A DNA stretch of 23,173 nt from Candidatus Nutricula glyptotermitis (GTDB taxonomy: Bacteria; Actinomycetota; Actinomycetes; Actinomycetales; Bifidobacteriaceae), in the NCBI GenBank assembly GCA_031263495.1, contig JAISFQ010000100.1, forward strand, positions 1 through 23,173, written 5' to 3'. Below are positions 4,559 through 19,571 of the stretch, one piece after another. The stretch's first letter is position 1, and each line of letters begins with the position of its first letter. Position numbers and translations under genes: made by a program. The notes under the pieces are model-generated. The model ran no database searches and was not told the DNA's origin. It saw only the letters and a list, made by a program, of their open reading frames with translations.

Positions 4559-5464
4559 ATGGGAAAAATAACAGACACATTTATGACGCTTTCGCGCGAA
4601 TCGCAAGGCGTGGAAAACGATTATTTCACTGACTTTTATCAAGAACCAGACAGTGAGAAGGCAAAAGTCGCAGTAAATATTGATGACACTGCCGATTTTG
4701 ACTTAGGCGAACTGCAAGATTACGCAAGTTCACGCGCCAAAACTGCTACGCTTAGTGAAACAGTGCCAAAACCTGCGGTGATGGAAATTGCAGAAACAGT
4801 GCAGCCAGTAGCAACACCTGAGCCTGCTCCGCCGAAGATTACGCGCCAAGATATAGAAAGCATCATCAATTACGACGGCGATTCAGACGATTGTGATGAC
4901 GAGAGCGACAATCCGCTTCCATTACTCGCAGTGCGCGGATTAAAAGGGCAGTTAGAGAAAAACAGCAAAGTGCAGGAAAAACGCACTTTAATCACTACGA
5001 AAACCATCATTCCGATTTGCCTTGCGATAAGCGCAGTAATGTGTGGCAGTGTTTTATTGTTCGAAACTTCGTTCAACGCAGGCAACCAAAGTGTGCAAAT
5101 TGCGAGTTCAGAGGGCAATAATGCAGGTAGTGCAAGCACAGAAAGCGCGGCTGCACCTGAAACGCCAGTAGTTACTGAAAATAGCGAAGCAACTGCGCCC
5201 GAAACTTCCACCGAAACGCCTGCAAAACCCGCAGAAACGAAGGAAAATGCCACTAAAACATCCGCTTGCAATGGAAAAGTCAACTTAAACACCGCAACCG
5301 CGAGTGAACTGCAAGAATTGAAAGGTGTGGGACCCAGTACTGCGGAAAAAATCGTCGCATACAGGACGGAAAATGCAGGTTTTGCGTCGATTGAAGACTT
5401 GATGAACGTTACTGGTATTGGCGAGAAAAAGTACGAATCGGTAAAGGACTCAATTTGCACATAA
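4559..5464 (+). CDS. comEA: Competence protein ComEA (DNA receptor, helix-hairpin-helix). Has a long acidic N-terminal region, one TM segment and a T/S/E/A-rich linker.
   Basis: The C-terminal NLNTATASELQELKGVGPSTAEKIVAYRTENAGFASIEDLMNVTGIGEKKYESV is the classic ComEA tandem HhH motif. Hydrophobic segment IIPICLAISAVMCGSVLLF. Located immediately upstream of comEC. The start codon is uncertain. Confidence 0.85.
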   Translation: MGKITDTFMTLSRESQGVENDYFTDFYQEPDSEKAKVAVNIDDTADFDLGELQDYASSRAKTATLSETVPKPAVMEIAETVQPVATPEPAPPKITRQDIESIINYDGDSDDCDDESDNPLPLLAVRGLKGQLEKNSKVQEKRTLITTKTIIPICLAISAVMCGSVLLFETSFNAGNQSVQIASSEGNNAGSASTESAAAPETPVVTENSEATAPETSTETPAKPAETKENATKTSACNGKVNLNTATASELQELKGVGPSTAEKIVAYRTENAGFASIEDLMNVTGIGEKKYESVKDSICT

Positions 5465-5541
5465 TATGGTATTTTGGGGTCAGACTGTGGTTTCTGAAAC
5501 TCGTCAACAGACGGCGCAGGCAATTTGACAGGGGTGGTTAA

Positions 5542-8022
5542 ATGATAAAAGATTACAGATTGCTCACTTTGGCGCTATGTGTGTGGCTCGGCGGATTGTG
5601 CACATTCTTTATGCCCAGTTTACTGACTGTTTTACTGATGTTCGGCGTGTCGATGGGGCTGTTGTTACTGATGCTATTCTTAAAACAGTTCGCAGATTAC
5701 AGCATAAAAGACAAGCTTGCAACGTTTTTATGCATAATTATGGCGTTCGCGTTCAGTTTCATAATCACAAGTTACGTAGGCTTCGCGTTCCACCCAGATG
5801 TCAGTGCAAAAATTGGCAAAACAGTCACGGTAACAGGCACAATATCGTCAAATTCAAGTTCAAACGTCGATTTGCAAGGCGATGTTAAATGCTCGGCAGT
5901 AGTCGAATTGTCAAGTTTGAGAGAAGGCAGAATCGAAACGAATGCGCACTTTTTCATACGCGTGTTTTCGGACGATTCGATGTGCAAATACCAGTTCGGA
6001 GAGACAATTTCGGCACGCGGAAAAGTTACAGAACCGCTTTCGTTCTCAAAGGAAGCATTTTGGATGAACAACGCGAGCGTTACAAAAATCGGCGATGCAC
6101 CAGCCATCGAGCAGTTTTTCAACGACATGAAGGCACGCACAGTCGTCGCGACCGAGTCGATCGAGAACAAAGACGCGCTCGGCTTGATGTTCGGAATGTC
6201 GTTCGGCGACAAGCAATACATGTCCAAAACTTTGATTACGAACACCGCAAACTCGTCACTTTCGCACCTGACAGCGGTTTCAGGCACGCATTTGGTCATA
6301 CTAATCGCGGTTATACAGGCGTTTTTATTCGCACTCAGACTGCCAAACTTCGTGATTGTAGTGTTGCAAATTGTCATAATATCGTTCTTTACCATGTTTG
6401 TGCACAGCGTCGATTCCATAATGCGAGCAGCGTTTATGAGCATTGCGGGTTTGTTGTCAATCTTTTTCAAGCGACCGTCCAACGCAATTTCCGCACTCTC
6501 AGCAGGCATAATCGCGTTAATCTTGCTTGACCCATTTCGCGCGATTTCGTATGGATTTATACTTTCGTGTCTCGCAACTTTCGCAATCATAGTGTTCAGC
6601 GGCAAAATGGCAGAGAAATTGGAACGCGTTTTGGCCGAAAGTTTGGGCAAAATTGTGGCGATTCCGTTAGTCGCAACTATATTCTCAAGCCCGATAATTT
6701 ACCTGATGAATGGGCAGATTCAGTTACTCGGCGTGATTTCAAACATTCTCGTTTCGCCATTCGTTTCGGGCGCGACGATTTTCGGCATATTGAGCACTGT
6801 AACGTCATTTATCCCATCTCTCAGCGCAGTTTTGGGTTACATTGGCGCATTTTTCTCAAACTTTATCGTTGTTATCGCGAACGCAGTCGGCGAAATGCCA
6901 TTTGCAGCACCGATGTGGTTACCGTTTTTACCACTGCCAATAGGCTTTATGCTGATGATTGCGATGTTTGTCATAATGTACAACTTCAATCGCATATATA
7001 GGTTCATGTTCAAAAAAGTTACGGGTTACGAGGCGAGTGAGGCGAACAATTTGACCACGAAAGCGAAGCGCAAGTTCGCGAAGTTTACGCATAAATATAA
7101 GGAAATGTTTGCACTACAACCCGCAATCGTGATTTTCGCAGTTGTCATACTGATTTTGCCCATTACTGGCATTACTGCGTATTCCGTCCAGAACACAGGC
7201 AGCGTTCCGAAAACATGGATGATCGGCGCGTGCAAAGTCGGTCAGGGCGACGCAAATTTGATACGTACAGGTGCAAATAGTGCGATTTTGGTCGACACTG
7301 GACCTGACCTGGACCTGCTCACAGATTGCATGGACGCATTCGCAATCCACAACATCGATTTACTCGTCCTTACGCACTTTCACTCGGATCACGTCGCAGG
7401 CACTCGCGCTTTACTTGATAAACTACCAGTTAAACAGGCACTTGTTTCCCCTGTGCAAGCGTCCAGTAATGAAGTTAAAGATAATCTCACTGCATTGGAC
7501 GCGAAAAACATCCCGTACCACATCGCAGAAGCGGGCGAAACTGCAACAATTCAGTCAGGCGATTTCAATGTAAAGTGGGAAGTTCTACAAAGTAAAACCG
7601 CAGGTGACGTGACCAAAATGAGTGCCGCGAAACTTGACGACGCGGAAAACAATTCAAGCATTGCGTTATTTATCGAAGCAACTGACAGATTCGGCGGCAC
7701 AGAACAAAAACTTACAGAAATATTGCTTGGCGATTTGGAAAGTACAGGTCAAAGTTCCCTGCTCGGCGCGATTAAAGGTAACGCAAAGTACGCAAATGTC
7801 GACGTTCTGAAAGTCGCACATCATGGTTCAAAAACGCAAAATAAGGATCTCGCAAAGTTTCTCGCGCCAAAAGTTGCCATATATGATGTCGGCAAAAATA
7901 CATTCGGTCACCCAAACCCCACGACAGTCGAACTGTTTGAAAGCCTTGGTGCGGTTTCGCTCGACACGTTTTCATCAAATGTCGGAGTTTATGCGGGGGA
8001 TGGGTTGGTGGGGTTTAGATGA
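5542..8022 (+). CDS. comEC: DNA internalization competence protein ComEC/Rec2 (polytopic membrane competence domain plus C-terminal metallo-beta-lactamase domain)
   Basis: 826 aa with many TM helices. MBL motif LTHFHSDHVAG (HxHxDH) and a later AHHGS. SD GGGGTGG lies before the ATG at 5542. Gene order comEA-comEC. Confidence 0.9.
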   Translation: MIKDYRLLTLALCVWLGGLCTFFMPSLLTVLLMFGVSMGLLLLMLFLKQFADYSIKDKLATFLCIIMAFAFSFIITSYVGFAFHPDVSAKIGKTVTVTGTISSNSSSNVDLQGDVKCSAVVELSSLREGRIETNAHFFIRVFSDDSMCKYQFGETISARGKVTEPLSFSKEAFWMNNASVTKIGDAPAIEQFFNDMKARTVVATESIENKDALGLMFGMSFGDKQYMSKTLITNTANSSLSHLTAVSGTHLVILIAVIQAFLFALRLPNFVIVVLQIVIISFFTMFVHSVDSIMRAAFMSIAGLLSIFFKRPSNAISALSAGIIALILLDPFRAISYGFILSCLATFAIIVFSGKMAEKLERVLAESLGKIVAIPLVATIFSSPIIYLMNGQIQLLGVISNILVSPFVSGATIFGILSTVTSFIPSLSAVLGYIGAFFSNFIVVIANAVGEMPFAAPMWLPFLPLPIGFMLMIAMFVIMYNFNRIYRFMFKKVTGYEASEANNLTTKAKRKFAKFTHKYKEMFALQPAIVIFAVVILILPITGITAYSVQNTGSVPKTWMIGACKVGQGDANLIRTGANSAILVDTGPDLDLLTDCMDAFAIHNIDLLVLTHFHSDHVAGTRALLDKLPVKQALVSPVQASSNEVKDNLTALDAKNIPYHIAEAGETATIQSGDFNVKWEVLQSKTAGDVTKMSAAKLDDAENNSSIALFIEATDRFGGTEQKLTEILLGDLESTGQSSLLGAIKGNAKYANVDVLKVAHHGSKTQNKDLAKFLAPKVAIYDVGKNTFGHPNPTTVELFESLGAVSLDTFSSNVGVYAGDGLVGFR

Positions 8023-10400: not shown

Positions 10401-11105
10401 ATGAATGACAAAAAATTGACTGGAAACCTGAACATCACGCTGATTGTGTCCGCAATCGTGCTGGTTGTGTATAACGTAATCGCGTTCGTGGTGCCGATTG
10501 ACAGAAATAGCAGTTTTTGGACTACCTACGCGTTCCAAATGATTGCGATTATTCTGTCCGCACTTGTCGCTTCGTACGCCACCAAAAAACCGACGCTGAA
10601 GTCGCTATACTTAGGCATTTCGCTGTTCTACGTCGCTATGCGCTATGTTATAACCGAACTCGTCGTCGGGACGCTGTTATTGCTACTGCCGACCGCTCTG
10701 AACTGGGTATCTATCATCGCGCAAGTGGTTATACTGGCTGTATTTTTGATATGCGTTATCGTTACAGACCGCGCGAAGGACGTAATCGAATCGACGGAAG
10801 CGCATATCGCGACGAAACGCCAGTTTGTGCAGTCAAACCTCGCAACAGTTGAAGGTTTAATAGATACGACTACTGACGATGAGTTACGGAAAAACTTACA
10901 GAACTTGGCGGAAACCATCAAGTTTTCAGACCCGATGAGCACAGATGATGTTGCCGAACTTGAAGAAATCGAAAGCGAGATTGACCGCGAGATTGTCAAT
11001 TTGCAAACTGCGATTCAAGCAAACGAAAGCACTGCAAAAGCACAAATTAACGACGTTGAACTGCTGTTTAAGAAGCGCAACAGACTGGTCAAACAGGCTA
11101 AATAG
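10401..11105 (+). CDS. Membrane protein with 4 predicted TM helices and a C-terminal cytoplasmic acidic coiled-coil (YdjH-like partner?)
   Basis: 234 aa. The ATG lies 1 nt after the upstream stop, with a strong SD GAAGGAG 8 nt upstream, which indicates translational coupling. Hydrophobic segments at aa 12-33, 40-60, 68-90 and 100-122. Confidence 0.7.
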   Translation: MNDKKLTGNLNITLIVSAIVLVVYNVIAFVVPIDRNSSFWTTYAFQMIAIILSALVASYATKKPTLKSLYLGISLFYVAMRYVITELVVGTLLLLLPTALNWVSIIAQVVILAVFLICVIVTDRAKDVIESTEAHIATKRQFVQSNLATVEGLIDTTTDDELRKNLQNLAETIKFSDPMSTDDVAELEEIESEIDREIVNLQTAIQANESTAKAQINDVELLFKKRNRLVKQAK

Positions 11106-11112
11106 GGGAAGT

Positions 11113-12630
11113 ATGATCGTCCAAACATGCAAAAAGTGTGGCGGAAACGTGGTTTTGGAGTCCGAAAACGTAAAAACGATCGGCATTTGCGAGTTTTGTG
11201 GCACAAGAACGACAGTCGCCAAAATCGACGAAGATCAGGCAATTGCGCTATATAATCGTGCGAATAAATACCGCGAGACCTGCGATTTTGAGAACGCGAG
11301 CGAGATATACGAAGAGTTACTTTTGAAAAACAACAGCAGTGCAGAAGCGCATTTCGGGCTCGTTTTGTGCAACTACGGCGTGGAATATGTCAAAGACGAT
11401 AGCACAGGAAAATATAAGCCAACTTTGCACACTGTAAACAGCACACCAATCGCGGACGACGTGGAATATAACGAAGCAATTCGCTTGTCAGACGGCGATA
11501 CTAGGGCGATTTATGAACGCGACGCGCGCGAAATTCAGAAGATTTTGGACAAATACTTAGCAATCGCAGCGTCCGAAAAACCTTACGACATTTTCATTTC
11601 ATACCGCCACAACGACGACCGCGGTTTGCCGACTTTGGACAGTGGAATCGCGCAAAAAATATACAAGGAACTCAAAAACAAGGGCTACAACGCGTTCTTT
11701 TCCAAAATATCGCTCGAGGACAAACTAGGTTCAGAATACGAACCATACATATTTTCCGCACTACTGGCTGCGAAAGTGATGATTGTCGTCGGTTCGAGTA
11801 ACGCAAACATGAACTCAAAGTGGGTCAAAAATGAGTGGCACAGATTCTTGGCGCAAACGATGAAAGACCACCAAAAACGCCTAATTGCGTGCTTTATAGA
11901 CATGGACGTATACGATTTACCGCGTGAATTTGCCGCACTACAATCACAGGACATGCGCAAAGTTTCCGCACTTGACGATTTGGTAACCAGTATCGACAAA
12001 ATATTTGGCAAGAACGACAGTGCGCACGTAAATGCGGGCGTAAGCGAGATAATCAGCACGTTTTCAAGCAGAAATGCAGAGTTGAAAGACCTAATCGAGA
12101 ATGGCTATGTTTACCTTGATCAGGAAAACTTTGGCTCTGCGACGCGCGAATTCAATCGTGCACTAGATTTGAAGCCGAACAGCGCCGATGCGTATTTGGG
12201 AATGGTGCTTTCAGATGCTCGCTCAAAAGACTTCGCCGAGTTCAAAAGCCTATTTAACTCTCGCTACATGGGGTTTTTGTACGAATCGACAGTGTTTCAG
12301 CGGTTTGTGCAATATGCCAGTGGTGCGCAGAGAAATGAGATTGTGGAGTTGCTGATTGGTAACGAAAAGCGTGAACTTGCGAAATATAAGTCGGTGCAAG
12401 ATGATGCAATCAATAGCGGTTTGGACGCACATTCAAAACTTGCAGATTATACGTTGAGCGAGATGACCGAAGTTAGCGAAAAGTATCAAAACAGCAACAT
12501 AAACGACAAAAATGCAGATAATGTGCGCGAAATCTTGGACAACGACGCATTTTATATCGACGAGTTGATAAGCGATTTGGAGCGCGATAATGAAAAGATT
12601 AAGCGCGATGTGCTTGCGGGTGATTGGTAA
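11113..12630 (+). CDS. Zinc-ribbon + TPR-like + TIR-domain protein with a C-terminal helical/TPR region
   Basis: 505 aa from the ATG at 11113. The track's 10945 start lies inside the previous gene. CxxC...CxxC (CKKCGG...CEFCGT) at the N-terminus. TIR signature KPYDIFISYRHNDD...AKVMIVVGSS...SKWVKNEW. TPR-like LDLKPNSADAYLGMVL. Confidence 0.75.
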   Translation: MIVQTCKKCGGNVVLESENVKTIGICEFCGTRTTVAKIDEDQAIALYNRANKYRETCDFENASEIYEELLLKNNSSAEAHFGLVLCNYGVEYVKDDSTGKYKPTLHTVNSTPIADDVEYNEAIRLSDGDTRAIYERDAREIQKILDKYLAIAASEKPYDIFISYRHNDDRGLPTLDSGIAQKIYKELKNKGYNAFFSKISLEDKLGSEYEPYIFSALLAAKVMIVVGSSNANMNSKWVKNEWHRFLAQTMKDHQKRLIACFIDMDVYDLPREFAALQSQDMRKVSALDDLVTSIDKIFGKNDSAHVNAGVSEIISTFSSRNAELKDLIENGYVYLDQENFGSATREFNRALDLKPNSADAYLGMVLSDARSKDFAEFKSLFNSRYMGFLYESTVFQRFVQYASGAQRNEIVELLIGNEKRELAKYKSVQDDAINSGLDAHSKLADYTLSEMTEVSEKYQNSNINDKNADNVREILDNDAFYIDELISDLERDNEKIKRDVLAGDW

Positions 12631-12633
12631 AAT

Positions 12634-13083
12634 ATGAAAGTAGCACTAGCGATTTTTGGTATTTTTGTAGCAATAGCACTTCTCGTGCAGTTTTGGTATG
12701 TCACGCTTCCACTCATTGCTCTATTTATCATATGGTGTGCGATAAGTGTGAAAAAAGATAATAAAGAAAAAAAAGAGGCTGAAGAACGAGTTACGGTAAT
12801 AGCGCGGAAGGAAAACATAACAAACAATAAAATTCAGCCAAACTTAGGTAAAATTGATGAGTTAATCAGTTTGAAAAAGCATTTGGTGCGACAGCATAAC
12901 ACGATAGTCGTCAACAAATATCACATTTTGGCACGCGAAGCAAACATCGATATGCTTGAAAATGTGCAGTCGGGAAGCACTAATAAACTTGGCGATATGC
13001 AACAACAAGTTCTTGATTTTACAGAAGTATCTGGCGAGGAAATAAGCGAAAGCAAGTTTGAAACTTTTCTGTTTAAGGTGTAG
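12634..13083 (+). CDS. Small membrane protein: 2 N-terminal TM helices plus a ~110-aa cytoplasmic domain. Candidate effector or anchor of the operon.
   Basis: 149 aa. The ATG lies 3 nt after the TIR gene stop. MKVALAIFGIFVAIALLVQFWYVTLPLIALFIIWCAISV. Confidence 0.6.
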   Translation: MKVALAIFGIFVAIALLVQFWYVTLPLIALFIIWCAISVKKDNKEKKEAEERVTVIARKENITNNKIQPNLGKIDELISLKKHLVRQHNTIVVNKYHILAREANIDMLENVQSGSTNKLGDMQQQVLDFTEVSGEEISESKFETFLFKV

Positions 13084-13201: not shown

Positions 13202-13555
13202 GGGGATGATTGGCATCGACTGTATTATGTGATTCAGAGTAAGCGAGCGGAGAATGTGCCTAACTCTTTAAAATTGGTGCAAACTATAAGTGCAAACACA
13301 AATCGCACTGGTTATGCCCTAGCGGCGTAATCCGTCCGACTGATAATTTTGCTTTCGGTCATCAGTTGGGCGTCGTAACTAGAAAGCCACTGGTCATTTG
13401 TCATGTTGGTGGGCAAATGGCGAGACTTTAATCAACTTGGGTATGCTATTTCGTCTGTTTGAGACGCATACTTGAAACTTAACAAGCAGACTGCGCTCGG
13501 AGAAAGTTTTGATGAAGTAATTTGGGACCCGGGTTCGACTCCCGGCATCTCCACA
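13202..13555 (+). ncRNA. ssrA: tmRNA (SsrA), standard one-piece. Tag ORF 13292-13330 encodes ANTNRTGYALAA followed by a stop.
   Basis: 5' GGGGATGATTGGCATCGAC, compared with the E. coli GGGGCUGAUUCUGGAUUCGAC. The 3' T-arm GGGTTCGACTCCCGG plus CATCTCC-A pairs with the 5' GGGGATG through a G3·U wobble (AlaRS identity). The resume codon is GCA, and the tag ends ...YALAA-TAA. Confidence 0.9.
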
Positions 13556-13583
13556 TGTACTTCGCTGAAAAAGCAGTACTGGG

Positions 13584-13799: not shown

Positions 13800-13848
13800 T
13801 TATTTGTCATCTAGGTAGTGTGCAAAGCACGCGACACGGGATCTGCAT
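13800..13848 (+). repeat. R2 element (ttgtcatctaggtag, a short hairpin, then gcgacacgggatctg). This copy forms a direct repeat with 14822-14870, and the pair flanks the tandem array.
   Basis: Sequence identity with 14822-14870 apart from the hairpin core. Confidence 0.75.
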
Positions 13849-13870
13849 TCAAGAACTGTAAGTTTATTCT

Positions 13871-14836
13871 CGCTCATACTCCACCTCAGAACCCCGCACA
13901 TACTCCCACTCTGAATTCCTGCGAAGGCAGGAATCTTAAAACTAGTGTGAGCGCATGCGAACACCATTAAATGCATTCGCTATTGCTCATAGGGTCAAAT
14001 GGGGTCAAATGCTCATTCGCATTTTCCTCCGCTGGGTCAAATGCTCAATCGCATTCTCCTCCGTTTCAAGAGTCCGCATCACGCTACACTTCGTTCCGCG
14101 GTGCGGAATTCAGAGTAAGAGTATTGCGTGGCATGTAAGAGTACTGCTTGTTACGTACGAATCGGAGTTCGCTTCGCTCACACTCTTACCCCCGCAACTT
14201 TTCAAAACAACTTCGCTTACGGGATGACAAGGTACTTCTTGCTAATACTCCACCTCAGAACCCCGCACATACTCCACCTCAGAACCCCGCACTCCGTTGC
14301 GGAATCTTAAAACTAGTGTGAGCGCATGCGAACACCATTAAATGCATTCGCTATCGCTCATAGGGTCAAATGCTCAATCGCATTCTCCTCCATTTCAAGA
14401 TTCCGCATCACGCTCGCTTCGCTTCACGGTGCGGAATTCAGAGTAAGAGTATTGCGTGGCATTAAGAGTACTCCTCGCTACGTACAAAAAGGAGTTCGCT
14501 TCGCTCACGCTTTTACCCGCGCAACTTTTCAAAACAACTTCGCATACGGGATGACAAGGTACTTCTTGCTCATACTCCACCTCAGAATTCCGCACATACT
14601 CCCACTCAGAATTCCGCACTTGTTGCGGAATCTTAAAACTAGTGTGAGCGTATGCGAACACCATTAAATGCATTCGCTAATCGCTCATAGGGTCAAACGC
14701 TCATCCGCGAGGGTCAAATGCTCAATCGCATTCTCCTCCATTTCAAGATTCCGCATCACGCTACACTTCGTTTCTCGGTGCTAAATTCAGAGGTGAAGTA
14801 CTGCGTGGCATTAGGAGTACTACCTTGTCATCTAGG
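13871..14836 (+). repeat. Tandem array, about 2.7 copies (periods 369 and 327 bp), of the composite modular repeat. Each unit holds 22-nt 'actccacctcagaaccccgcac' sub-repeats, a MITE-like palindrome (gcggaatcttaaaa...tttcaagattccgc) and a 'gggatgacaagg' inverted-repeat module.
   Basis: 'tactccacctcag' recurs at 13877, 14246 and 14573. The ORFs of the track inside it (e.g. the duplicated MRTPLNAFAIAHRVK... peptides) are repeat artefacts. Confidence 0.85.
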
Positions 14837-14870
14837 TAGCGCGTGAAACGCGCGACACGGGATCTGGCTT
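14822..14870 (+). repeat. R2 element, the second copy flanking the tandem array
   Basis: ccttgtcatctaggtagcgcgtgaaacgcgcgacacgggatctg. Confidence 0.75.
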
Positions 14871-15025
14871 CTTACTATGTAACGTACTTTCTCGCTAATC
14901 GCAGATCCCGCATCGCTTCGCTCGCGGGATGACAACTGTGGTGATGCATCGTGCATACTCGCTGAATTTGAGAAGTTAAAAGTGCAGACAGTGAACTTAA
15001 TGATGGGAAAAAATCTCACGAAATT

Positions 15026-15556
15026 TCATAAGTTCTTTGCGAGTATTTCTCCTTTTTCACGTTTAAGTTCTATTAATCTGGACTGCTCTGTGGATATTTG
15101 CTGTTCAAGGTTCTTAACCTTTGATACTATCTTTTCTTGAATGCGAAGTGGGGGAATTATGACAGTATATTCTAATATTTTTCTTTTATCTCCACGTGGC
15201 ATTTTTGTACCATTTGCGGTTTGCATTGCATAATTGAAAAACCTATCATCCATCAATAGGCGCATAATGAATAGTGGCAAAATATCTTTTGCATGAGATT
15301 CGTTCAATTGCAAAACTAAAACATCGCCACTCGCTCCACCAGAATTATTTGCAAACCAAATCTTTTTTAGATAAGGTCTGATGTTGCCAATCAGAATATC
15401 ACCCTCATTATACTTTGCGTAGTTGCCGTCTATGGGAACAAAGTTTGATTGCTGTTTTCCGAGTTTACCCTGTAGCAGATTATCAACTCCAACATAATTT
15501 TCAGGATTCAATTCTGCGGAACTTATTTTATTTCGGCTATAGTGTAGAATCTCCAC
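15026..15556 (-). CDS. HsdS-like target-recognition domain 2 plus conserved region (IIPPLRIQEKIV). It is the out-of-frame 3' continuation of the upstream R-M-S gene. As a separate ORF it would use a GTG start.
   Basis: 176 aa. The 'PPL..QEKI' conserved HsdS motif and the coiled-coil tail parallel the C-terminus of the upstream ORF (IPVPPIDVQEKII). Frame is +1 relative to the upstream ORF. Confidence 0.75.
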   Translation of the reverse strand: MEILHYSRNKISSAELNPENYVGVDNLLQGKLGKQQSNFVPIDGNYAKYNEGDILIGNIRPYLKKIWFANNSGGASGDVLVLQLNESHAKDILPLFIMRLLMDDRFFNYAMQTANGTKMPRGDKRKILEYTVIIPPLRIQEKIVSKVKNLEQQISTEQSRLIELKREKGEILAKNL

Positions 15557-15560
15557 TAAT

Positions 15561-18500
15561 TTATATTTTTGCCCCCCCCCCCCTTAAATTGTCCATTATA
15601 CTGGAGATTTGAGTGCTTAGGTCTGCGATTTGCTCTTTGGCAATTTGTTCTTGTTGCTCAACTTCTTCGTAATCAGCGATTATTTTTTCTTGTACGTCAA
15701 TTGGTGGCACTGGTATTTGTATATTCTCCACTGCACTTTGATTAATGCCTCCTTGTGCCGCTCCAGCTTTTGCATTACGTAAAAGAGCTTGTCCAGTTTC
15801 TGACAGGAGCATATAAAACAAATATTTTTGCAATACATCCGAATTCTCTCTTACACGCAATATAAATATATGCTCATTGACCATGACTTTTTCATTAGCA
15901 AACTCGTTCCTTACAAGTGCCACTTTCCCTGTTTGTGCACCATCTTTACAGATTAAAATATCGTTTACCTTCAACTTTGCGCTTTCTTTTGCACTTTTAT
16001 AATACTCATGTGGCACATATTTTGGTGAACTTAAATTGATATACCCCGAAGTACTGTCGATATGTTCACCTCCGATGCTTAAAGCACCATTTTCTATATT
16101 CTTGACACCACCTTTAGGTCTACTCCCACTTATAGGCTTGTCCGTTAAAAATTGCCCGATTGCTTTAAGGGGGTACTCTGTATTCCAGTCAATTTTCTCA
16201 TTTGCTCCGACTCCACTTTCATTAGTCAAGTTAATCACTTTATGAAAAACAGGTGTCTGCCAATCAATCATGTCCTCCAAGTAATTGACACTGACGTATT
16301 TTTCTAAATGCTTGGGTATATTTACCGTTTCGCCATTGAAGTTTTTGCGAATCAACCCATTGATTGTTCCTGTTCCCAAATATAAATTGTCGGGGTCAAA
16401 CAGTGGAGTTTGAATTTGGCTTATATCTCCTGCGAGAATTCCAATTCCCTCGTTCCCTTTGCGATTTGACCAGCCATAACCTAGAAATTTTTCTGCAGTA
16501 TCTCCGGTTTTCTCAGAAGGCGTTTTAACTATCAAGACAGGGCATGGGTTGTTTTTTGCAAGCATAAAACAGAGCAAACGCTCTTTATGCGTTTTGTTTG
16601 CAAGGACTTTTTTTGACGTCAATTTAACTTTTTTGCAATATTGCTGAAAAAGCTTTTTGTCTCTGAAAACTGAACTTTCAATTTTTTTGTCATTAAACCA
16701 TTTCTCTACACGATTTTTATACTGATCATAGCTAGAAGGGTTGTCAGACTTCTTTCTAAGGAATAGAGTCGAAGTGACCACACCAGTTTTTCCAAAAGTA
16801 GTAGCACCTGATTCAAAGATTGCGATAATGTCAAAATTCTTAAGCAATATATTTCTGCCTTCGATAAAGATAGTTTCATGGCTGTTTAAGATAGAAATAG
16901 GCAAAATGACAGTTGCGACTCCACTAGGTTTAAGTAATTTGGCGGCTTTTTCTAAGAAAAACACTTCAATATCGTCATTAGTCGGGACGTGTTTTTCTTT
17001 TAGTGCGTTATTGTATGCATCATAGTTTTCTCGGTAATCTTCAATTGTTTCAAGAAATCCTTTTACTGAATAAGGAGGGTTTGCAATCAAAACGGAAAAC
17101 GAGTTGTCTTCAATGCCGTTAACATCCGTTAATGCATCCGCATATTTTATTTTGATTTCTTTTTGCCCATACATGAGAGCGGAAACTTTTGCCACCTTCG
17201 CTAGACGACTTTCTTTCTCAATCCCATAGATTTCAGAATAATGCTTACTCAACTGTTTATCATCATCTACATAATGTGCAATTTGTGTTGCATATTCATT
17301 CAGAAAATGTCCTGCACCACATGCATAATCAATCACTTTTGGAATTTCATTTTGCTCAATAATTTCTTTTAGTGGCAACGAAGATACTAAGAAGCGTACG
17401 ATTGGAGTTGGTGTGAAAAATTGCCCTTCACTTTGCTTTACGCCATCATTCAAAAAGTTTTCAAAAAAATCACCTAAGAATTGATGTGACACTTTGGATG
17501 TAATCTGTAAATCTTCTAACATCTCAACCACCTGTATAAGAATCTCAGCATTTTGCTCAAAGAGAACTTCATTGTAAACGTCTAAGAACGAAAAATAGTT
17601 GTTAGAATAAAATCGCAGTCTGTCGAACTTTTCTTGAATTTTATCAAGTGTTGCATCTGGATCTGTTTTGACGAACTTAAAAGCGTCACGGACTTCTTCG
17701 CGACTCACATACTCAACTTTCTCGGACATGTGCTCCCACATCCCTTTGCGGTATAATTTCTGCAATCTATCAAATAAATCTTTCCGATCGTCAAATGCGA
17801 TAGTGTGCCAATAGAAGTCTAACTTCTCTTTATTTTCTGCACTTTCGATAACCTCTAGTTCATCAACCACTTTTGCGAGAAGTAAATTCAACAACTTATC
17901 AAAAGCGTTTTCTCTACCAGATACATTATACTTTCGTAAAATCTCACGAAAAGTATGGTATTTTCTAGCGAGAATGCTCGCGAAATTAGGAGTGTTGCTA
18001 GAATTGAGTAAATCATTAATACTGACAAACTTTTTGCCGACATTAAAAGGCTCTATATCTTTTTCAAACATCCCCATTGACGAGACAGCTCCACGATACG
18101 TCCCCTGCCAAACTTGATATAATTCGCGACTATTATTTGATAGCGCATATGATTCCGCCTGCTTATTGTCATTGAGATAGGATTCGTTGTCGTTCAAGAT
18201 TACCAATTGATATTCTCGTGATAAATCATAATTTTCAAATACCTGTTCATTGATTTTACTCTCAGATGTTTTAATGAAATCCGAAGTGTATAAGACTAGG
18301 TTTGGAAAACGGCGTTCACCATTTTCATCGGTATGTCCGAGAACTTGTGCATAATCAAAAAGTTGCCCACCAGACATTTCAAGTCTTTTTTTTGCCTTTC
18401 CGTACTCTTTTCCTGGCGTTTTGCATTCAATCAGAGCAAAACAGTTATCGTTTCTGTCTGATATGCGAATGTCTGCCCAGTTTAGCTTATTTGTTTGCAA

Positions 18501-18797
18501 TTTGAATTCGAGAGTTATATCCTCGGGATGATAATGCAACTCAAATAGACGGTTAACGCACTCAAAAACGACAAAACTCTCATTTTGATGAAAAGAGGTG
18601 ATTGTAGTTGCTCTGTCATATCTCACGCCATCAGGATATATAAACTCCTGCTTCCTCGTGTCCACAGCGAGCTTGAATTCACTCGCCTTTCCAACATCGA
18701 ACACCTTTTCATACTTTCCCTCTTTGTCATCTGTAAACTCTAAATGTTTTAGTAACTTTGGGAATGTCGCTTTAGTAATCATATTTTGCCCTTCCAT
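15561..18797 (-). CDS. Single-chain Type IIB/IIG-like restriction-modification enzyme. It has an N-terminal PD-(D/E)xK nuclease, a gamma-class N6-adenine methyltransferase and a C-terminal HsdS-like TRD1. It is truncated relative to a full R-M-S by the G12 tract.
   Basis: 1078 aa. Nuclease motif ISDRNDNCFALIECKTPG. MTase motif I DYACGAGHFL and motif IV LIANPPYS. C-terminal TRD with IQIPVPPIDVQEKII. The likely true start is M6 (ATG 18782), which is preceded by SD GAAGGG. Confidence 0.85.
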   Translation of the reverse strand: MEGQNMITKATFPKLLKHLEFTDDKEGKYEKVFDVGKASEFKLAVDTRKQEFIYPDGVRYDRATTITSFHQNESFVVFECVNRLFELHYHPEDITLEFKLQTNKLNWADIRISDRNDNCFALIECKTPGKEYGKAKKRLEMSGGQLFDYAQVLGHTDENGERRFPNLVLYTSDFIKTSESKINEQVFENYDLSREYQLVILNDNESYLNDNKQAESYALSNNSRELYQVWQGTYRGAVSSMGMFEKDIEPFNVGKKFVSINDLLNSSNTPNFASILARKYHTFREILRKYNVSGRENAFDKLLNLLLAKVVDELEVIESAENKEKLDFYWHTIAFDDRKDLFDRLQKLYRKGMWEHMSEKVEYVSREEVRDAFKFVKTDPDATLDKIQEKFDRLRFYSNNYFSFLDVYNEVLFEQNAEILIQVVEMLEDLQITSKVSHQFLGDFFENFLNDGVKQSEGQFFTPTPIVRFLVSSLPLKEIIEQNEIPKVIDYACGAGHFLNEYATQIAHYVDDDKQLSKHYSEIYGIEKESRLAKVAKVSALMYGQKEIKIKYADALTDVNGIEDNSFSVLIANPPYSVKGFLETIEDYRENYDAYNNALKEKHVPTNDDIEVFFLEKAAKLLKPSGVATVILPISILNSHETIFIEGRNILLKNFDIIAIFESGATTFGKTGVVTSTLFLRKKSDNPSSYDQYKNRVEKWFNDKKIESSVFRDKKLFQQYCKKVKLTSKKVLANKTHKERLLCFMLAKNNPCPVLIVKTPSEKTGDTAEKFLGYGWSNRKGNEGIGILAGDISQIQTPLFDPDNLYLGTGTINGLIRKNFNGETVNIPKHLEKYVSVNYLEDMIDWQTPVFHKVINLTNESGVGANEKIDWNTEYPLKAIGQFLTDKPISGSRPKGGVKNIENGALSIGGEHIDSTSGYINLSSPKYVPHEYYKSAKESAKLKVNDILICKDGAQTGKVALVRNEFANEKVMVNEHIFILRVRENSDVLQKYLFYMLLSETGQALLRNAKAGAAQGGINQSAVENIQIPVPPIDVQEKIIADYEEVEQQEQIAKEQIADLSTQISSIMDNLRGGGAKI
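15572..15583 (-). repeat. Homopolymeric tract: C12 on + (G12 on the coding strand), encoding ...RGGGAKI* at the 3' end of the R-M-S ORF. Candidate slipped-strand phase-variation switch.
   Basis: Counted as 15572-15580 (9 C) plus 15581-15583 (3 C). With G11, the reading ...RGGGQKYKLVEILHYSRNKIS... continues into the downstream TRD2 ORF. Confidence 0.9.
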
Positions 18798-18881
18798 GTG
18801 CCATACGTACAGTATAGTGGATTTTCACGTTATTTGCAAACAATACGAGTAATTGTGCAAAAAACACGAAACTCATTTTTG

Positions 18882-18890
18882 TGCTATCAT
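18882..18890 (+). promoter_or_regulatory. Extended -10 (TGCTATCAT) placed 6 nt before the GTG at 18897. Suggests a leaderless scpB transcript.
   Basis: TGnTATCAT motif. There is no SD between it and the GTG. Confidence 0.35.
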
Positions 18891-18896
18891 ATTACA

Positions 18897-19571
18897 GTGA
18901 GCGAAAACCAAAGTGCCGAAAAACTGCCACGAAGCGAGGAAAAACTGCTGCAAGGCGAAATTGAAGCAATTTTAATCGTGTGCGACGAAGGCGTGCGCGT
19001 GGATCAACTGACTGACGTGCTTGACGCAGAAGTGCCAGAAATAGAACGCGCACTTGCCGATTTGCAGGCGAAATACGCAGAAAATGCGAACGGTTTTGTC
19101 CTTCGCGAATCAAAAGATGGCTTTTGGCAACTCTTTTCTGCGCCCGAACATGCCGAAACTGTGGAAAAGTTTCTGCACAACAATCGACTGCAAAAACTCT
19201 CAATCCAAGCACTCGAAGTTTTGGCGATTATTGCCTACAAACAGCCTGTTACACGCGCAGAAATCGCGTCAATCCGTGGCGTAAACTCTGATCAAATTGT
19301 CCGCGCACTGCTCGCAAAAGAACTAATATGTCACGCTGACGAATTAACGACGACTGGCGCGACAAAATACGCAACAACTGATGTTTTCCTGCAAAAACTC
19401 GGCATACAGCAACTTGACGAACTCTATCCGCTCGCGCCATATCTGCCACCAGTAACGGAAATCGACGAAAACGAACGCTTGCAGAAATTGCGCACTAAGC
19501 AAACCGACTTATTCGTCGACTTAAACCTAGACACAAACTCTGACGACGAAACGCAATCGGAGGCGGTGTAA
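18897..19571 (+). CDS. scpB: Segregation and condensation protein B (ScpB)
   Basis: The ...GEIEAILIV... winged-helix N-terminus and the central LSIQALEVLAIIAYKQPVTRAEIASIRGVNSDQIVRALLAKELI are typical of ScpB. Followed by an acidic tail. GTG start proposed at 18897. The track ORF start at 18786 would overlap the divergent R-M gene start, so that start is unlikely. Confidence 0.8.
   Translation: MSENQSAEKLPRSEEKLLQGEIEAILIVCDEGVRVDQLTDVLDAEVPEIERALADLQAKYAENANGFVLRESKDGFWQLFSAPEHAETVEKFLHNNRLQKLSIQALEVLAIIAYKQPVTRAEIASIRGVNSDQIVRALLAKELICHADELTTTGATKYATTDVFLQKLGIQQLDELYPLAPYLPPVTEIDENERLQKLRTKQTDLFVDLNLDTNSDDETQSEAV

Follow-up and report, generated by a model that had tools for sequence, protein, structure and literature searches.

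A poly-G tract at the border of the two specificity modules of a predicted single-chain Type IIB restriction-modification gene in Candidatus Nutricula glyptotermitis

Phase-variable restriction-modification (RM) genes are already known, as is the specificity switch of Type I hsdS genes, in which a repeat is placed between two target recognition domains (TRDs). In the hsdS gene of NgoAV, loss of one G from a poly-G tract converts the recognition site from GCAN8TGC to GCAN7STCA, a change from a symmetric to an asymmetric sequence (PMC9577141), and a survey of REBASE found hsdS repeats between the two TRDs as a rule, G12 tracts included (PMC7383803). Helicobacter and Campylobacter provide further examples of poly-G tracts, in Type IIG genes and in a BcgI-like S gene (PMC3936762, PMC4889913). 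Among single-chain Type IIB enzymes, AloI, PpiI, TstI and CjeI are polypeptides of ~1250 amino acids (aa) with two TRDs (PMC3874165, PMC4027205). HaeIV of Haemophilus aegyptius is a single chain that binds as a homodimer, bringing together two copies of one specificity domain, and it cleaves the DNA to either side of its symmetric site, GAY N5 RTC (PMC4081073, PMC3874165). Here we analyze an RM gene of Candidatus Nutricula glyptotermitis (Bifidobacteriaceae) that occupies positions 15026 to 18797 of contig JAISFQ010000100.1 (assembly GCA_031263495.1); the whole stretch of 23,173 nucleotides (nt) is referred to as the window. NgoAV represents the repeat-between-TRDs switch of Type I hsdS, and the present locus is its counterpart among single-chain Type IIB enzymes. 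Related genes in many bacteria have such a run in many lengths, and the G12 tract is therefore very probably a device that switches the enzyme reversibly between forms with two modules and with one. We consider it probable that this is a horizontally acquired, stand-alone Type IIB gene of the HaeIV/AloI kind, in which a hypermutable tract between TRD1 with its conserved region (CR1) and TRD2 with CR2 switches specificity.

The gene lies on the minus strand, as do all features of it given below, and is divided into two open reading frames (ORFs). ORF1 (15561..18797) encodes 1078 aa and its C-terminus (...MDNLRGGGAKI; SSIMDNLRGGGAKI) is reached within the G12 run, with the TAA stop of the G12 frame at 15561..15563. 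ORF2 (15026..15556) encodes 176 aa, comprising TRD2 and CR2, from a GTG start located 4 nt past that stop. The G run is exactly 12 nt long (15572..15583, reading C12 on the plus strand) and is thus a homopolymer of at least 9 nt within a reading frame. The window contains twelve G/C homopolymers of 5 nt, none of 6–11 and one of 12, which makes G12 the sole G/C run of 6 or more. Because the expected count of runs of at least 12 is only 5e-4, we rejected the reading of G12 as a chance run; it is not one. Translation of altered alleles shows that the two ORFs are joined into one frame of 1256 aa by removal of one G (G11) and into one of 1257 aa by addition of two (G14). The G12 allele as assembled, like G10 and G13, encodes a product of 1078–1080 aa that contains the nuclease (R), the methyltransferase (M), TRD1 and CR1; in the G13 allele the stop follows ...RGGGGKNIN. 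TRD1, CR1, TRD2 and CR2 are therefore distributed over two ORFs as assembled and united in one chain after loss of one G or gain of two.

The sequence behind the tract has the appearance of a functional coding region. The ORF2 frame is open for 177 codons (P ~1e-6 at the local composition of 36–37% G+C), and the other two frames across the same stretch contain 14 and 18 stops. The stretch from the tract to the GTG codon, read in the fused frame (GGGQKYKLVEILHYSRNK), aligns with tract-less relatives (GDKRSLSDFFEYSNK; NRKVKIGEVLHYSDN), so that homology across the TRD1/TRD2 junction is regained. The 3.77-kb gene region has no lesion other than the frameshift at G12. Since ORF2 is open, homology is regained in the fused frame and no other lesion is present, a decaying pseudogene is very unlikely.

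ORF1 has the features of a single-chain Type IIB enzyme: an N-terminal nuclease, a gamma-class N6-adenine methyltransferase and a C-terminal HsdS-like TRD followed by a helix. The nuclease core is of the PD-(D/E)XK type (D109 ... E124-C125-K126; 18402..18542) and gives a weak Pfam match to HSDR_N_2 at residues 86–132; D109, E124 and K126 are invariant in an alignment of 61 homologues. The methyltransferase domain (16623..17486) is recognized by Pfam as N6_Mtase (residues 438–725, E = 2e-26) and as Eco57I (E = 4e-11), and contains motif I (VIDYACGAGHFL, residues 488–499; 17301–17336) and motif IV (NPPYS, residues 573–577; 17067–17081). The nuclease residues, the DYACGAGHFL motif and NPPY vary little or not at all in alignments of 26 and 61 homologues. 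TRD1 (15702..16199), which ends in IQIPVPP, is covered by a Methylase_S match at residues 936–1054, and the ORF2 product has its own Methylase_S match at residues 47–166 (E = 3e-8). Neither Pfam nor NCBIfam revealed a helicase or translocase domain in the gene product.

The specificity region consists of two recognizable halves. When fused, it can be aligned with the Type I S subunit 7vru_C in two places: TRD1 pairs with the C-terminal half of 7vru_C, and TRD2, starting from the residues right behind the glycine run, with the N-terminal half. TRD1 and TRD2 share only 21% identity. CR1 (residues 1033–1072; 15582..15701) and CR2, which contains the segment VIIPPLRIQEK... (15131–15163), are 28% identical and 62% similar without a gap. 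In an AlphaFold2 model of the ORF1 product (mean predicted local distance difference test score, 83.7), the last helix (1033–1073) corresponds to the conserved region that follows TRD1 and halts at the glycine run. This places the G12 tract exactly on the border of the two specificity halves. The first-pass annotation of this DNA had described the 1078-aa ORF, the G12 run and a second TRD with its conserved region 4 nt further on, all of which were found as given. It had also proposed the domain architecture, which the Pfam, 7vru_C and Foldseek results confirm, and had predicted that G11 or two additional G would fuse the frames into a protein of ~1250 aa, in agreement with the translated lengths.

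The closest solved relative is the RM subunit of BsaXI, which is both the best match by sequence (PDB 8w0p, E = 5.5e-23) and the best match by fold (Foldseek E = 3e-23 over 920 columns, with the N-terminus covered); the earlier assignment to Type IIB is upheld by these matches. S.BsaXI also matches the S region. The S subunit of BsaXI is a separate polypeptide, whereas the present gene joins it to the RM chain. The protein of 1256/1257 aa read from G11/G14, which contains nuclease and gamma methyltransferase followed by TRD1-CR1 and TRD2-CR2, resembles AloI, PpiI, TstI and CjeI, a likeness of layout. TstI is a tetramer. The literature searched reports neither a junction repeat nor phase variation for those four enzymes.

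The position of the repeat, after TRD1-CR1 and before TRD2, and its two outcomes, a full-length two-TRD or a truncated one-TRD protein, are those of NgoAV and other Type I hsdS genes, the closest precedent and one absent from the first-pass annotation. In contrast to NgoAV, the specificity module is fused to nuclease and methyltransferase and an HsdR translocase is lacking. The switch here would also alter the ratio of catalytic domain to TRD from 1:2 to 1:1, and enzymes of this kind, by analogy, would cut at fixed positions. The locus is NgoAV-like in its working and is not a Type I system, because it encodes one chain without a helicase or translocase domain and no hsd genes adjoin it. The Campylobacter and Helicobacter precedents invoked earlier are real (PMC4889913, PMC3936762) and place poly-G/C tracts in Type IIB or IIG RM genes, namely the BcgI-like HP1471/JHP1364 of H. 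pylori, the Type IIG genes JHP1272/HP1353-54 and cj0031. HP1471, unlike our locus, is an S gene on its own. The MmeI/Eco57I-like enzymes JHP1272 and cj0031 recognize continuous sites and lack a pair of HsdS-type TRDs, and their tracts are not located at a TRD1/TRD2 junction. At the second tract of JHP1272, an added C-terminal recognition segment changes specificity (PMC3936762).

HaeIV is a characterized enzyme that bears on the short form. The window protein is 41.2% identical to HaeIV (AAC33717.1) over 878 residues (6–883; 626 bits). Both have the same R-M-S order, and the product of the G12 allele has the one-TRD layout ascribed to HaeIV. HaeIV (P0129) falls in the same cluster as a split H. 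influenzae protein, and its residues 1–926 are 95.7% identical to a 1066-aa H. influenzae ORF with the same TRD1 allele. That ORF is laid out as in the window: it ends RGGKTL, followed by a stop, at a G7 tract and is succeeded by an intact, out-of-frame TRD2. The two systems differ in their TRDs, in tract length (G12 here, G6–G7 there) and in host, which is an actinobacterium here and a member of the Pasteurellaceae for HaeIV. We found no description of HaeIV as one state of a switch in the literature searched.

Several observations suggest that the one-TRD short form is probably active. HaeIV, an active homodimeric enzyme, belongs to the family, and its H. influenzae orthologue shares the split layout. 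One-TRD relatives of 1085–1129 aa occur naturally, with no tract and nothing TRD-like downstream. The same truncation in Type I systems, to TRD1 and the central helix, yields active half-S dimers. The window protein also has a CR1 that resembles its CR2, and such likeness is the condition named for half-S dimers in a review of Type I enzymes (PMC3874165). If the short form is active, the switch probably alters specificity and does not turn the enzyme off.

Evidence that the tract changes in length comes from relatives. A protein search returned homologues in two length classes, ~1250–1330 aa, which cover the whole fused query, and ~1090–1115 aa, which cover 85% of it. Most of the short homologues end in or just past GGG at one alignment column. 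At that junction column several of the long homologues have an in-frame GG(G) and others have no glycine; the enzyme does not require the tract, because tract-less relatives have other residues at the junction. A genome search gave at least 561 hits, and DNA-level comparison was carried out on species-representative genomes; homologues with a G tract at the junction belong to several phyla. Fused genes with a tract at the junction were found in Campylobacter concisus (G9), in Neisseria musculi, Kingella and Moraxella boevrei (all G8), and in Gemella and Streptococcus infantis (both G7). Split genes, in which an intact frame of 168–181 aa for TRD2 lies behind the tract, were found in H. influenzae (G6/G7), Lactococcus ileimucosae (G7), a Kiritimatiellae metagenome-assembled genome (MAG; G8) and Opitulatrix (G10). 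Orthologous loci with shared neighbours have G10 and G7 at 93.6% nucleotide identity, and an orthologous pair with the same neighbours, also 93.6% identical, has G10 in a split gene and G9 in a fused gene of 1297 aa.

A metagenome census, in which the conserved helix motif had to be followed by at least 7 G, identified 83 loci of the family. Of these, 36 are fused, 39 are split (TRD2 with at least 130 open codons), four are otherwise broken and four lie at contig ends. Tract lengths are 7 (23 loci), 8 (30), 9 (21), 10 (5), 11 (2), 12 (1) and 18 (1), and both out-of-frame states are present. Relatives thus have tracts of G6–G18 at the junction where the window has G12. Groups of loci that share an identical 18-nt upstream flank differ in the tract itself (G7/G8/G9; G7/G9/G11; G7/G8/G18). 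The longest junction tract, G18 (L107, contig OFMI01000198.1), is in frame and encodes six glycines; the alleles that share its flank are split, with tracts of G7 or G8. The sole other G12 junction tract of the census (L098, contig ODIS01000072.1) is followed by frames open for only 13 and 29 codons, and TRD2 is seemingly degraded there.

Cultured isolates give the same picture. Within one 90%-identity cluster, Histophilus somni proteins terminate in RGG, RGGG, RGGKTV, RGGGKTV or RGGGGKTV, and a fused form of 1302 aa is also present. In the corresponding H. influenzae cluster, the tails are RGG, RGGG and RGGGKTI, and the fused forms have 1272 aa. Complete genomes and assemblies alike show the length polymorphism. 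The protein family therefore includes near-identical alleles that differ in tract length, in both frames, with the downstream part intact. This pattern is the hallmark of a contingency locus subject to slipped-strand mispairing, and with its fused and split members in near-equal numbers it strongly supports the phase variation proposed from the window sequence at the outset.

Tracts were also noticed at other positions in two of the relatives. In the Kiritimatiellae MAG (L025, 2291–3668), six more G/C runs of 7–10 nt lie within 1.4 kb upstream of the homologue, which suggests several contingency loci side by side. Helicobacter sp. 13S00401-1 has an in-frame G13 upstream of TRD1 (L021, 6568–6580; NFVGGGGIFISENL) and not at the junction; a frame shift there would cut the protein off before any TRD.

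We propose the following mechanism. Slipped-strand mispairing during replication would alter the tract length in the host. Cells with G11 or G14 would make an AloI-type enzyme of the order R-M-TRD1-CR1-TRD2-CR2, the layout given by translation, which would recognize an asymmetric bipartite site. In cells with G12, G13 or G10, the product may pair through CR1 to form a HaeIV-type homodimer, and this one-TRD dimer would methylate and cut a symmetric site composed of two TRD1 half-sites. Most likely, the switch would shift specificity and the ratio of catalytic domain to TRD rather than act as an ON/OFF device. The outcome would be subpopulations that differ in methylome and in restriction barrier. 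The first-pass annotation spoke of a phasevarion, in which methylation would in turn control a putative regulon. Slippage of the tract is likely in a host of the Bifidobacteriaceae, because G10–G12 tracts in Bifidobacterium breve have very high slip rates; one colony, for instance, comprised 37% G11 and 60% G12 cells (PMC9187656).

Some observations weigh against this proposal. The nearest non-self proteins in the protein search are only 40–47% identical. On a rough neighbour-joining tree of the R-M region, tract-bearing proteins fall into at least two large groups plus scattered ones, and the window protein stands beside tract-less relatives of 1180–1190 aa; its tract may for that reason have been gained independently. 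The locus is carried by one sample only, in which both assemblies read G12. A change of specificity in an enzyme that cuts DNA brings a risk of self-restriction. Finally, the deposited HaeIV sequence (953 aa) leaves that of its orthologue after residue 926, by a frameshift inside TRD1, and ends inside TRD1. The copy in the H. aegyptius genome stops at 911 aa (...EIKKRQINYC). The discrepancy (P0129 and P0124; L041, 6600–7200) reflects either an error in the old sequence or extra frameshifts in the strain. We rejected the deposited HaeIV as proof of an active enzyme that ends at the tract, given that it diverges from the orthologue inside TRD1. A single origin of the tract is unsupported, the tree being too crude to distinguish an ancestral tract with losses from repeated gain.

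Among the alternatives, a plain ON/OFF switch deserves the most attention, and we judge it rather unlikely. Only the fused two-TRD protein would then be active, the 1078-aa product would be inactive or unstable, and G12 would be the OFF state for restriction and modification alike. Most characterized poly-G switches of RM genes work in this way; examples are the first tract of JHP1272 (PMC3936762) and cj0031, whose ON/OFF switching alters the methylome of Campylobacter jejuni (PMC4889913). In enzymes of the AloI type both TRDs are used (PMC3874165), and the split state of about half of the related loci is as expected if an OFF state is tolerated. However, HaeIV is active on a symmetric site and its orthologue has the split layout (PMC4081073), and one-TRD relatives occur naturally. 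Truncation also falls exactly past a complete CR1 helix, as in the active half-S dimers of NgoAV, EcoR124I and EcoDXXI (PMC3874165, PMC9577141). The first-pass annotation had left the choice between a specificity toggle and an ON/OFF switch open; the evidence favours the toggle, with HaeIV an active homodimer and its orthologue split, and the ON/OFF part finds less support.

We think it unlikely that the tract length is a sequencing error, with a true mode of G11 or G14 and an AloI-type enzyme that is intact in the majority of cells. The count of 12 G was taken from a metagenome assembly built from short reads. A Logan assembly of SRR14710921 is identical to the window over 6877 nt and also has G12; exact look-ups of both ORFs returned this one further contig only, from the same run. 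G12 was thus obtained by two assemblers, which were probably supplied with the same reads. G tracts are difficult for Illumina sequencing and the lengths in databases may be wrong, missing the true mode (PMC9187656), so that the modal length here could be G11 instead of G12. Such a difference would affect which state is called but leave the kind of locus as it is. Complete genomes from cultured isolates have split states just as often. A run of 11–12 G would be hypermutable even if the mode were G11, so that the reading of the tract as a switch stands.

Slippage could also act on RNA. It seems improbable that RNA polymerase slippage or ribosomal frameshifting on G12 produces a fixed ratio of short to long protein from unchanged DNA. 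Long homopolymers promote transcriptional slippage (PMC1088944, PMC5009743), and G12 is long, but the documented sites are mostly A/T runs. Relatives differ heritably in the tract length of their DNA, and they have neither a conserved length nor a conserved stimulatory element. Transcriptional slippage could occur in addition to slippage of the DNA.

A fixed two-gene layout appears distinctly improbable. ORF2 would be translated by termination-reinitiation at the GTG codon, 4 nt beyond the TAA, and its product would join the ORF1 protein as a half-S subunit to give a constitutive two-TRD specificity. In Type IC systems, S halves synthesized as two chains are able to assemble. BcgI-type enzymes have S as a polypeptide of its own (PMC3874165). 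Against this arrangement, no Shine-Dalgarno sequence lies at a usable distance from the GTG, the G run ending 15 nt before it, and no promoter-like site was found near ORF2, where a promoter scan performed no better than on shuffled sequences. Initiation at GTG would also drop residues that are homologous in the fused relatives. Among the 39 split relatives, the first possible start for TRD2 is at no conserved place (median 57 nt past the tract) and is near the upstream stop in 11 only. Both out-of-frame states occur in the relatives.

The decaying pseudogene mentioned above, an RM gene frameshifted en route to loss, would suit a probably horizontally acquired low-G+C island and the frequent loss of RM genes, but we rejected it in view of invariant catalytic residues, intact catalytic motifs, an open TRD2 frame, the lack of a second lesion, and a lone frameshift that falls in a 12-nt homopolymer at a position hypermutable across the family.

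The genomic setting has the look of a stand-alone acquisition. The gene block (window 15001–19000) has a G+C content of 0.36–0.39, lower than the 0.42–0.49 of its flanks, which suggests that the RM gene was acquired horizontally. It sits between the transfer-messenger RNA (tmRNA) gene and scpB-smc, and no hsd or other RM genes are nearby in the window. Comparison of the tmRNA 3' region and ORF2 end with the ORF1/scpB side revealed no shared flanking direct repeats. An alternative ORF1 start at 18782 yields the 1073-aa protein of the databases (P0001). A promoter-like -35/-10 pair (TTTGCA-18-TATACT, 18811..18840, minus strand) upstream of ORF1 is a consensus match only, and the number of promoter-like sites in the region is not above that expected from shuffled sequences.

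The tmRNA gene (13202–13556, plus strand; 154 bits; tag peptide ANTNRTGYALAA) was the only hit in an Rfam search of the window. Just upstream of it, where SmpB might be expected, a 149-aa ORF (12634–13083) has no Pfam match at E 1e-5. Between tmRNA and the 3' end of the RM gene (13800–14935) lie ~3 tandem copies of a non-coding repeat of ~327–370 nt with a G+C content of ~0.485, and the Logan contig breaks within this repeat, at window position 14906. A possible defence gene (10945–12630, plus strand), located 2.4 kb from the RM gene, encodes a 561-aa protein with TIR_2 and TPR domains. Further upstream are comEA-like and comEC competence genes (4559–8022, plus strand).

Beyond this genome, we advance a wider reading tentatively and with a little less than even confidence: that a junction poly-G is widespread in the single-chain Type IIB family, and that HaeIV-type and AloI-type enzymes are interconvertible states of one gene. 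The family with such a junction tract would comprise members from Pasteurellaceae, Neisseriaceae, Campylobacter, Bacteroidota, Firmicutes and this genome of the Bifidobacteriaceae. In the literature searched, which did not extend to REBASE, we found no description of a junction-repeat switch in single-chain HaeIV/AloI-type enzymes and none of the HaeIV and AloI architectures as two states of one gene.

Genome annotation records such a gene as two, one called "N-6 DNA methylase" and the other, which is small, "restriction endonuclease subunit S," and in the assignment of motifs from metagenome methylomes two motifs per gene should be expected. If the switch operates as proposed, the alleles would offer natural matched pairs for the puzzle of how one catalytic module serves two TRDs (PMC3874165). 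At the level of the family, the HaeIV and AloI architectures, which are treated separately in reviews, would be joined, and each cell line would flip its restriction barrier and methylome between two specificities. For Candidatus Nutricula glyptotermitis, slippage by one nucleotide would change both the DNA that is methylated and the incoming DNA that is destroyed, giving mixed populations with differing barriers to phages and plasmids in a commensal lineage.

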